Positions 41,452 through 44,400 of a DNA stretch of 64,000 bases are shown here, piece after piece (the first letter of the stretch is position 1; every line of letters starts with the position of its first letter). Below the pieces are notes generated by a model. That model saw only the letters and a list, made by a program, of their open reading frames with translations. It did not search any database and was not told the DNA's origin. The stretch is from positions 46,014 through 110,013 of IMG/VR virus record IMGVR_UViG_3300031555_001542. The stretch is one strand, 5' to 3'. A program made the translations under genes and the position numbers. The DNA comes from a virus. Taxonomy: Duplodnaviria; Caudoviricetes.

Positions 41452-44400
41452 ATGGCTAAAGAAGTAAATATTGATAGTCTTGCCGACAAGATTGCTGACA
41501 GATTGCTGGCCGCAAAACAGCAAGCTCGTGAGGCAGGTGAAGATGTTGGAGAGGAATTTGCTAAAGGTGTTGTGCAAGGTATTCAAAAACATTCAAAAGA
41601 TTTTAAAACAGAGACTACAAAACAGTTTGAAGAATTGCAAAAAATAACAAAAAGGTTCAAATCAAAACAATCAGTTTCTACGGCAGATTGGAATAAAGCT
41701 TTTGAGCTTTCTAAAGAGTTAATGAAAAGCGAAAGGTATGCTAAGAATGTTGAGGAGATTCTTGGTGATGTTAGGGCAACATTTAGTGGTATCGGTGAAG
41801 TATCTGGAATTAAAAACATTGTTAAAGAATTGGATAAAGCCAGTGATAGATTAGAGTCAGTGTCTTGGAGCCAGGCTGGTATGTATTTTAAAAGCAGGAA
41901 GAAGCCAGCTGTTGAACAACCAAAAACAGAAACTCCTGTAGTACAAGCAGATCCTGCACCTGTTGTGAAGGTGGAAGAAAAGAAACAAAAAGCTATTCAA
42001 GAAACTACTGCAGACTTACATGATCAAAAAAATGCGGTTGAAGATGCATCTAAGGCACAAGAAAAATATAACCAAAGAATGTCTGAAATTAAAGACAAAT
42101 ATAGCGCAGATATACAAGAACAGAAGCAACGTATTTCAAATCAAGAGGCTTGGCTTAAATATCTAAATGGTTCTTTGGATGAATCAAAATTTAAAACAAC
42201 TGGTAAAAAAGCGGCGACAGATCAATTGCGTTCACTTACAAACTATATGGTCAATGGTCGTCGTAATAATTATGCAAATGACCCTGGACAATATCCAAAA
42301 GAAATGGCCGAAGTTGCCTGGATGCGTGGATATCAAGAGGCAGAAAGACAGGGTGTTGCAGACAGTGTTCTAAGAAGATTTGATACAGATGCAAGATATG
42401 ATTTTGATGCAAATTTAAAAAAATTACAAGACGAATATGATATGCGCAAAAAGATTATGGATGCTGCATATGAAGAACTTAAACGTTTATATTTGGAAAG
42501 AGATAAAGAAGCTTTTGCCGCATTTACAGATAATCTAATGCCAGATGGTCCTCAGTCTGATGAGGAAAACAGAATTCTATCCGAGATTACAGAGCAAGTT
42601 GCTAAAAAAACATTAAGTTATACTGAGGCAAAAGCAAGCCTTGAGAAGTCTATTATAACTTTGCGTAATATGGCATCTTCTGAGGCAAAAGTTAATCTTC
42701 AAAATTTAGTTAATGATTTAAAGAAGACATATGATGCTGAAACTTTTGATAAAGTTTTTGGTGCAGATTTAAATATGTTCGATTGTTTTGATAAAATTGA
42801 CGATGCTGGTGCAAAAGAATTGTATGATATGCTCATTGAAAGCAATAAAACATATCAAGCAAGTCTTGTTAAAACTATAGATGTCCAAAAAGAGTTCAAT
42901 AAACAAATGCAAGATGGAAATATACTTTATCATGCAGGCGACTTAAGCAATCCATCTAAAACTCAAAAAACATATCCTCTTGGTCATGTTCGTCCAAGTA
43001 AGAGTAGTGGTATATTTAATGGATTTACTGGTCTATATACCACCGAAGATGTGGATGGGTTCTGGGGCAATGAATGGTCTGGTGCACCTATTAGTACGAT
43101 TGACGCATCTCAATATAAGCTATTTAATGCAAGAACAGACGAGCTTGCAACAAAAGCAAAAGAATTCTTTGATAGTTTAAACGGAACAATTTATGGATAT
43201 ATTGAAGATTTTTCTACTGGAGAAATCAAAAAAGCAACTGATGTTAAAAGTATTGATGAATTGTGGACAGATTTCCAAGAAGTGTTTAAGAATACTAATA
43301 TGACGTTCGAGAAGTTCTCAGAGTTTATCAAAAAAGCACAAAGTCTTGTGTTTGGCAAGAATTTCGACTTCGTAGAGGGACTTCCAGATTTAGATGAGGG
43401 AGTTGTAAAAACTGGAGAGAAATCTGCACTACAAGGAGTGTCAAAAGAAGTCTTTAATTTAGATAGTTTCCAAACTCAACTATTAAAGATGCTTGGTTTT
43501 GAAGGTATTGATCTTCGTGGAACTAAGCATAATGGTACTTATACTGGCGGTACAGTTATATTTGATGTTAAGCCAGAAAGTATAAAGACCACAAATGAAA
43601 AATGGTCTGATGTTATGGCTAGTCATGGATATGAGATTGATGAAGATGATTTAGCTCGTGAAGAAAAGCGTAGACAATTGGCATTTGATACCGCAAATGC
43701 GTATAGTCAGCAAGCAGATTCTGCAAAAGAAGTTGCGGCTGCACAAAAATCTGACTACTATGAAATGTCTCATAAAGAAGCAACTGATTATATTTTTGCC
43801 AATTACGATAAAGATTTGTGGGATAGATGGTTCTTGCGTGGCGAAGATGACGCACGATCTGAGATTGCTAAAAAACTAGAAAACGATGCAAAGTTAAAAA
43901 ATGCCGCACTTAATCAGATGTGGCATAATTATAAAGCACAAACAGAATCTGATATATCATATGACGACTTTTTAAATTCTAAGATTCCTGTATATAGAGG
44001 CGAGCGTGCAATTGATCTTTTTGGCAATATTGGAGAGTCAATTACTAAAGATGCAGCGTCTTTTTCTCTAGATAAGAGAATTGCGAAAGATTTTGCTGGC
44101 GCTTTGGATAGTAGAATAGGTGCAGTATTAGAAACATATATCTCACCAAAAGATACTCTCGGAATGCCTCGTCCTAAGTATGAAACAGAAAGTAATGCAG
44201 AGACAGAAGTTCTGGTTCCAATGAATCGAATTGCTGATTCTCCAGAGTACTTAAAATTTAAGCAAAAACTAAAAGAAAAACAAGATATACATTCATCTGG
44301 AGAAACTTCTGAAGATGTAGAAAAAACAATTACTTCTTATGAAGAACTATGTGGAGTTGTTGCTAGATACAACGAGTTAGTTAAAAAAGATATTCATAGA

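Follow-up and report, generated by a model that had tools for sequence, protein, structure and literature searches.

What is an ADP-ribosyltransferase (ART)-like domain doing inside the tape measure protein (TMP) of a tailed phage? The question is raised by a stretch of 64,000 nucleotides (nt), here called the window, that covers positions 46,014 to 110,013 of the virus record IMGVR_UViG_3300031555_001542 (Duplodnaviria; Caudoviricetes). This IMG/VR record is linear and 110 kb long, with a GC content of 37% and a completeness estimate of 68%. A preliminary description of the window, made from its letters and reading frames, had marked three short motifs in a long reading frame as the arginine, serine and glutamate (R-S-E) signatures of an ART, and had proposed an active mono-ART that is delivered at infection. 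We found that these motifs belong to a conserved module that very probably has an ART fold and that lies N-terminal of the TMP core.

The module is carried by a single uninterrupted open reading frame (ORF) of 4767 amino acids (aa) and 14.3 kb at 41452-55755 on the plus strand. This ORF encodes a tape measure protein, as seen from its PF10145/PHROG core, its great length, and its place upstream of the Dit and Tal genes. PhageMin_Tail (PF10145) matches residues 2216-2425 with an E-value of 1.1e-19, and phrog_4211, ‘tail length tape measure protein’, matches the ORF with an E-value of 1.7e-80. In tblastn, the TMP core matches proteins annotated as TMPs in phages of Enterocloster, Brevibacillus, Bacillus, and Lactococcus. 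The host of the phage is probably a member of the Bacillota.

All three motifs are in the TMP frame, as first described: IPVYRGE (R849, nt 43996-43998), ASFSLD..IAKDF (S870, nt 44059; S872, nt 44065), and AETEVLVP (E917, nt 44200; E919, nt 44206). The span originally assigned to the domain, 43960-44230, does contain the motifs, but the module is larger and extends over ~43747-44226, with a helical N-lobe that starts near 43747-43771. Using a 201-residue segment of the TMP as a phmmer query against 1.84 billion cluster representatives (clusters at 50% identity), we obtained 187 relatives at E<=1e-3, 33 of them at E<=1e-10, with the matches covering query residues ~7-165. The matched region of 125 of these relatives was aligned with the query, giving 126 copies from clusters less than 50% identical. 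In this alignment, both glutamates of the ExE motif, E917 and E919, are 100% conserved, as are W793 (nt 43828) and G904, and the arginine motif is nearly as constant (Y848 94%, R849 98%, G850 98%). The S-x-S motif of the preliminary description is present in the window copy, but the family motif is really [SA]-[FY]-[ST], in which the constrained residue is the last [ST] and not the first serine. Position 870 is Ser in 70% and Ala in 26% of the copies, and [FY]871 and [ST]872 are each 98% conserved. Conservation is also high at A878 (92%), F881 (90%), P899 (96%), and T902 (97%), whereas most other module positions vary, unlike the R, [ST], and Glu columns. Compared with its relatives, the window copy carries three insertions of its own (aa 854-859, 885-888, and 910-915), of which the third is in a loop that resembles the ADP-ribosylating turn-turn (ARTT) loop, and its columns are gapped in 71-98% of the relatives. 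The ARTT loop sets the substrate choice in other ARTs.

An AlphaFold2 model of the whole module, built on a 30-sequence alignment, reached a predicted local distance difference test score (pLDDT) of 85.6 and a predicted template modelling score of 0.83. In the model, five helices (aa 774-842) are followed by a strand that holds R849 (845-852), a strand that ends in S870-F-S872 (868-872), a helix (875-883), a further strand (890-897), and a long loop with P-x-x-T-x-G; the final strand (920-923) comes directly after E917-x-E919. The R, STS, and ExE motifs are placed by the model on the canonical ART elements, and both their order and their secondary-structure setting are those of an ART: strand 1 bears R, strand 2 closes with S-x-S and leads into a helix, and the last strand opens with ExE.

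We then compared the models with known structures. In Foldseek, the whole-module model gave no PDB match at E<=0.001, and its list consists mostly of ARTs (Vis, C3, TreX, ExoS, CDTa, iota, C2-I). In VIA-align against 48,161 PDB representatives, the whole model matched Vis, CPILE-a, VIP2, Certhrax, C3, and HopU1 at Z 3.5-4.5, and its N-terminal helices fell on the corresponding helices in ARTs of the Vis, C3, and VIP2 types (Z 3.6-4.5). This list was mixed with helical-bundle noise from the N-lobe; therefore, the core was modelled alone (aa 835-929, pLDDT 77.6). The core model reached Z>=2 with only 92 of the 48,161 PDB chains, and proteins of the ART fold fill almost the entire top 50. Its best match is TreX (Z 5.3, root-mean-square deviation 3.5 Å, 77 residues aligned, 21% identity) and its second-ranked match is KptA/Tpt1 (Z 4.5-4.7). 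The top 50 further include diphtheria-type toxins, LT (Z 4.0), HopU1, pertussis toxin, Tre1, XopAI, ExoS, SpvB, ParT, Scabin, ART2.2, PARPs, and an ART-like region of a cyanophage pre-ejectosome protein (9k3a_B, Z 3.0). Foldseek likewise puts TreX/TreTu at the top for the core model (prob 0.87), and a second-look structural alignment agrees. By the offsets of the alignment ends, core residue 15, which is R849, corresponds to R7 of LT. The same offsets bring R849 to R15 of TreX and the ExE residues (core residues 83 and 85) to its E100 and E102, which are the catalytic residues of TreX (PMC11606950), in keeping with catalytic equivalence. The BFVD matches comprise phage proteins that are large and uncharacterised, proteins for head morphogenesis, ModA/ModB, and entries named ‘ADP ribosyltransferase’.

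At the level of sequence, the signals are weak, and all of them agree on R-S-E ARTs. Neither the whole TMP nor overlapping slices of its N-terminal part produced a match for the module in Pfam, PHROGs, or NCBIfam, even at E<=10, and a profile search of the whole phage record with PF03496 (ADPrib_exo_Tox) gave no match. A phmmer search of the segment against PDB sequences found only a chance match to a beta-galactosidase, and tblastn of the module against 50,697 GenBank phage records found no match. A word-indexed homologue search returned nothing with the single segment, and with the family alignment it returned only ‘hypothetical proteins’ that have no Pfam domain. When 29 small homologues were scanned singly against Pfam, sub-threshold matches to the ART family PF01129 (0.0076) and to DRAT (0.087) appeared. 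The top match of the family profile in the PDB is 2kxi_A (E 0.042), aligned from S-x-S-x-DK-x-IA-x-x-FA through ExE; this entry is probably the Neisseria R-S-E ART NarE and serves as a lead only. In hhalign, T4 ModA pairs its PLWRG with YRG and its S96-A-S98-YDKNIALHFA with S-Y-S-x-DKxIAxxFA (P=0.0019); R72 and S96/S98 are the catalytic residues in this part of ModA. T4 Alt aligns in the ExE region, where GS....ExEVLVP pairs with GSLAPSNEMEVILP (Alt NEMEVILP; P=0.025), and T4 ModB aligns in the YRG turn only (P 0.046). The protein-language-model neighbours of the module are DUF4765/EspN, DRAT, ADPrib_exo_Tox, and Mod_ADP_RT clusters. For ADPrib_exo_Tox (PF03496) and Mod_ADP_RT (PF26816), the language-model scores of 0.85-0.86 and the marginal hhalign P-values are the sole signals. 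Because the module matches no curated ART model, it cannot be placed in the Alt/Mod/cholera-toxin family.

From the motif placement, the ART-dominated fold searches, and the weak sequence signals, the identity of the module as an R-S-E ART with an intact triad inside the TMP holds. The case for the fold is based on the near-total exclusivity of ARTs in the match list together with the conserved triad, not on single scores, and we consider it very probable that the module is an ART homologue.

The module has an unusually short C-terminal end. Its core consists of four to five strands with none after ExE, and solo homologues finish shortly after the ExE strand; in two loci, the genes stop 4-11 residues after it at true stop codons (after EAEILVRRK in L003 and after EAEILVPRRMLKKLRG in L005). 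Because the family ends so soon at real stops, we conclude that it does not have the post-ExE strands of the classical ARTs. TreX has strands 6 and 7 beyond ExE (PMC11606950), and ModA (200 aa) and Alt (682 aa) extend well past the motifs aligned here with hhalign. The helical lobe with the invariant tryptophan presumably substitutes for the missing strands.

Where else the module occurs bears on its role in the TMP. Among the best 150 of the 187 relatives, 38 also contain the TMP core, always downstream of the module, and many of the others are fragments cut at contig ends. We compared the whole TMP with 18 large relatives by BLASTP, and the shared blocks are the module (query residues ~760-950) in 18/18, the TMP core (~2000-2550) in 16/18, and parts of the C-terminus in 5/18. 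The N-terminal extension is otherwise shared with only two relatives, P0021 (query residues 228-490) and P0053 (459-706). The position of the module varies from residue 284 to residue 1778 across the relatives, and two related TMPs hold it twice: P0002 (aa 342-488, 585-741) and P0012 (aa 517-718, 1033-1240). Other carriers are found as well. In the locus L005 (7044-8549), the module is C-terminal to a MuF domain (PF04233, E 6.9e-21) in a gene that adjoins an SPP1-type portal gene, and there are at least four such MuF fusions among the relatives, including P0074, P0130, and P0150. In L003 (4706-5326), it forms a solo gene of 206 aa upstream of a terminase and a T4-type portal. A profile search of the 110-kb record of the phage for MuF (PF04233) found no match, and the window protein has no MuF domain. 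The best reading of this distribution is that the module is a shuffled cassette, carried as cargo in the ~2,100-residue N-terminal extension ahead of the TMP core. The GC content of the module does not differ from that of the whole TMP gene (35.8% vs 36.3%), and a search for direct repeats that flank the cassette found only short, low-identity pairs, which were judged to be chance.

One further relative, P0096 (1487 aa), has nine separate weak module-matching stretches and may be a multi-copy array. It can be compared with the 12-copy ART protein mentioned in PMC5512222.

The module is thus found on two proteins that leave the virion with the DNA, MuF and TMP; therefore, we regard it as cargo, and this is the best available argument for that role. 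MuF fusions are the textbook architecture of head-packaged injected effectors, and virion-packaged ARTs (Alt, MuF-ART fusions, and polyvalent proteins) are an established phage strategy (PMC5512222, PMC9503650, PMC7302621). By comparison with these, the TMP would be built into the tail and, on adsorption, would leave by the tail tip before the DNA does. Its N-terminal extension, which is head-proximal, may then enter the cytoplasm and fold, and the module may mono-ADP-ribosylate one or more host proteins with host NAD+ before phage gene expression, in the way that T4 Alt acts from the capsid. Both the activity and the delivery at infection that the preliminary description had proposed are read here only from analogy and domain architecture. 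On this footing, it is likely that the module is a catalytically competent NAD-using enzyme, and rather probable that it is delivered with the TMP. A protein arginine has about an even chance of being the target; it is suggested by the ExE, the mark of arginine-specific R-S-E ARTs (PMC11606950). The complete chain, in which an R-S-E mono-ART made ready in the virion would fold, be delivered, and modify the host, we judge slightly more probable than its opposite.

Several points weigh against this chain. The module has no significant match in the curated models (Pfam, NCBIfam, PHROGs) or in PDB sequences. All structural Z-scores are at most 5.3, in a range (Z<8) that, as the tool warns, can be non-specific. 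The first serine of S-x-S is replaced by alanine in 26% of the relatives, and pLDDT is low at the private insertions of the window copy, after YRG and in the ARTT-like loop. The family is also without the strands that come after ExE in TreX, LT, C3, and ModA. Finally, if the TMP is assumed to be trimeric, three folded domains of ~160 residues would be tight in a tail-tube lumen of ~4 nm. In a broader and, in our view, doubtful proposal, the TMP would be an effector-translocation device, with the ~2,100-residue extension consisting of exchangeable enzyme cassettes (in this TMP an H-Y-type ART followed by the R-S-E one) that are stored unfolded or extended in the tail lumen, threaded in before the DNA, and refolded. 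The ART would then be active only after refolding or after completion of its sheet by a host factor, as with thioredoxin for TreX. If true, the long-tailed phages of Gram-positive bacteria would have a toxin delivery like that of Rhs proteins and type VI secretion systems (T6SS), so far undescribed.

Among the alternatives, the one that survives best, though we consider it unlikely, is an active ART-fold enzyme with a substrate other than host protein arginine. Such an enzyme might ADP-ribosylate nucleic acid (DNA or RNA), link NAD-capped RNA to a substrate in the manner of ModB, act on a small molecule, or do no more than hydrolyse NAD+ or defence signals derived from it. The Tpt1/KptA RNA/DNA 2'-phosphotransferases are the second-ranked structural matches (Z 4.5-4.7), but they belong to the H-H-h clade, the catalytic residues of which are absent from the module. 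R-S-E ARTs that act on nucleic acids are known, with Scabin in the core-model match list, and a tRNA-modifying Rhs ART is reported (PMC13617354). The truncated core could favour NADase over transferase chemistry, and the module lies towards the head in the TMP, close to the end where the DNA is. However, the ExE dyad, which is 100% conserved, goes with arginine targets in characterised toxins (PMC11606950), and proteins are the substrates of the ARTs that match best in structure (TreX) and in sequence (Alt and ModA).

It is less probable again that the module works in the producer cell or during assembly, where it would modify host or phage proteins late in infection, or would be cleaved off and never be present in the virion. 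The TMP is made late in the cytoplasm, where NAD+ is present, and a folded globular cargo is hard to fit in the tail tube; moreover, it has been suggested that some other phages process their very large virion proteins (PMC7302621). A late cytoplasmic enzyme would have no need of the fusions that we observed, however, since the module is repeatedly joined to MuF head proteins and TMPs, which have in common that they exit the virion together with the DNA, and in at least 38 clusters it precedes the TMP core, always in frame.

Very improbable, in turn, is a catalytically dead relic of the ART fold whose role in the TMP is that of a spacer or plug, or of a module that binds NAD or a host protein. 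The truncation of the fold after ExE and the silence of every curated ART model would be in line with a relic, and inactive ART-like domains do exist, with the CNFy domain, IcmQ, and the TASOR pseudo-PARP all in the core-model match list. Pseudoenzymes typically lose their catalytic residues, whereas R, [ST], and both Glu are 98-100% conserved here in 126 divergent copies.

Chance co-occurrence of the motifs in a long low-complexity helical protein without any domain was refuted: short motifs are indeed expected by chance in an ORF of 4767 residues on which Pfam is silent, but the 187 homologues at E<=1e-3 cover exactly the module span, and the near-invariant R, [ST], and Glu columns, the confident fold models, and the ART-exclusive fold-search results leave this explanation with next to no probability.

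The enzyme that we favour, an R-S-E mono-ART stored with the TMP, is in concept close to T4 Alt, a ready-made ART that enters with the DNA (PMC5512222), and shares the R / S-x-S / ExE catalytic layout with Alt, ModA, and ModB. Unlike Alt, which is in the capsid, the module is in the tail tape measure. It also differs from the Alt/Mod proteins in having a different helical N-lobe with an invariant tryptophan and no strands after ExE, in its lack of a significant match to Pfam ADPrib_exo_Tox or Mod_ADP_RT, and in the host, which is probably a member of the Bacillota rather than E. coli. The MuF-ART fusions (MuF-VIP2 in the Microbacterium phages Percival, Goodman, and Johann; Alt/VIP2-MuF, PMC9503650) follow the same logic of a virion-attached effector, and homologues of the module are themselves MuF-fused. 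The carrier in the window is a TMP instead, and the Pfam VIP2/ADPrib_exo_Tox model detects the MuF fusions that have been published, whereas it does not detect the module family.

With TreX, TreTu, and Tre1 (PDB 8s2m, 9gco, 8s2n, 6drh; PMC11606950), the module shares a small ART core whose first strand carries R, whose second carries S, and whose fifth has the ExE. These toxins are similar also in that they are borne by a giant carrier protein on a contractile or tail-like machine that injects into bacteria, a delivery that for the module would be by analogy. They have a T6SS/Rhs carrier and an immunity gene, and the module has neither an Rhs cage, an immunity gene, nor a T6SS context. TreX keeps strand 6 and the C-terminal strand 7 and needs thioredoxin, whereas the module family stops after the ExE strand and has the N-terminal helical lobe. 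Sequence similarity between TreX and the module is not detectable, and the likeness is structural only. The polyvalent-protein ARTs (N4-ART/Tox-ART-HYD2, PF18760) and the podovirus ejection proteins also place strings of effectors on one virion polypeptide that is injected with the DNA (PMC5512222), and the N-terminal extension of the TMP resembles a string of this kind. Their ARTs have an H-Y-D active site, while the module has R-S-E at those positions and no Pfam match.

TMPs with embedded enzymes include mycobacteriophage TMPs with peptidoglycan hydrolase motifs and T5 Pb2 with its peptidase. These are globular catalytic modules in a TMP that are used at entry, and the TMP of the window has a peptidoglycan-binding domain as well. 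The known ones act on the cell wall outside the cytoplasm, whereas an NAD+-dependent ART must reach the cytoplasm. In two surveys of virion ARTs, the term ‘tape measure’ occurs 0 times, and literature searches aimed at ARTs within TMPs returned no account of one.

Virion-delivered ARTs have so far been known from capsid-packaged proteins, namely T4 Alt, MuF fusions, and polyvalent proteins, and surveys report that they are enriched among myoviruses and comparatively rare among siphoviruses (PMC9503650). If TMPs carry ARTs, the siphoviruses would have a first-strike route of their own, and giant TMPs would owe some of their unexplained extra length to payload and not to the ruler. The module family is sizeable, with its 187 clusters, and lies outside Pfam; its unusually small core makes it a compact test case for the minimal needs of an ART, and it could yield new host-targeting activities.

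A second module may precede the one described above. Residues 480-745 contain the motifs ILYHAG and GLYTTED, and a Pfam search of this segment gave no match. Its nearest language-model clusters are ART-PolyVal PF18760 (17/30 matches, score 0.92) and AcrIF11-type ARTs. Two kinds of ART, first an H-Y-type and then the R-S-E-type, may thus stand in tandem in this TMP. The coordinates of this segment, of the elements of the R-S-E module, and of the surrounding features are listed in Table 1.

Table 1. Features of the tape measure gene and its surroundings, in window coordinates.
Feature	Coordinates	Strand	Basis or remark
Whole ART-like module, aa 766-925, helical N-lobe and beta core	43747..44226	+	phmmer span; AlphaFold2 model
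N-terminal helical lobe, aa 774-842, five helices, invariant W793	43771..43977	+	DSSP of model
Strand 1 with Y-R-G, R849 at 43996-43998	43984..44007	+	Model strand 86-93
Strand 2 ending in S870-F-S872, then helix DKRIAKDFA	44053..44100	+	Model E109-113, H116-124
Strand 3, aa 890-897	44119..44142	+	Model E131-138
ARTT-like loop, conserved P899/T902/G904, private insertion aa 910-915	44143..44199	+	Alignment; lower pLDDT
E917-T-E919, then strand VLVP; predicted catalytic ExE position	44200..44220	+	Model strand E161-164; alignment
Neighbouring module, possibly H-Y-type ART-PolyVal-like, aa 480-745	42889..43686	+	Language-model features; lead only
TMP core domain PF10145	48097..48726	+	aa 2216-2425
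Candidate membrane-inserting segment, aa 2725-2750	49624..49701	+	Only strongly hydrophobic TMP segment (Kyte-Doolittle); function putative
C-terminal PG_binding_1 (PF01471), aa 4573-4631	55168..55344	+	E 2.8e-18; endolysin PHROG matches too
Dit-like gene	55827-57056	+	Downstream of TMP; phrog_33 / phrog_6211 matches for the Dit and Tal pair
Tal/minor-tail-like gene	57072-61670	+	Downstream of TMP; phrog_33 / phrog_6211 matches for the Dit and Tal pair
Endolysin gene	37167-38648		Upstream of TMP gene
Holin-like gene	39931-40251		Upstream of TMP gene
RuvC-like Holliday junction resolvase gene	40342-40845		Upstream of TMP gene

In the C-terminal half of the TMP, PG_binding_1 and the hydrophobic segment at aa 2725-2750 fit roles at the cell wall and the membrane. 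The lysis genes directly upstream of the tape measure gene (37167-40845) are in an unusual location. The ORF immediately before the TMP gene (40907-41434, 175 aa) has no family match and might encode a tail chaperone. Further upstream, another giant gene of the virion region, an ORF of 1907 aa at 30804-36527, matches only PHROGs of unknown function (phrog_14959, E 7e-151).

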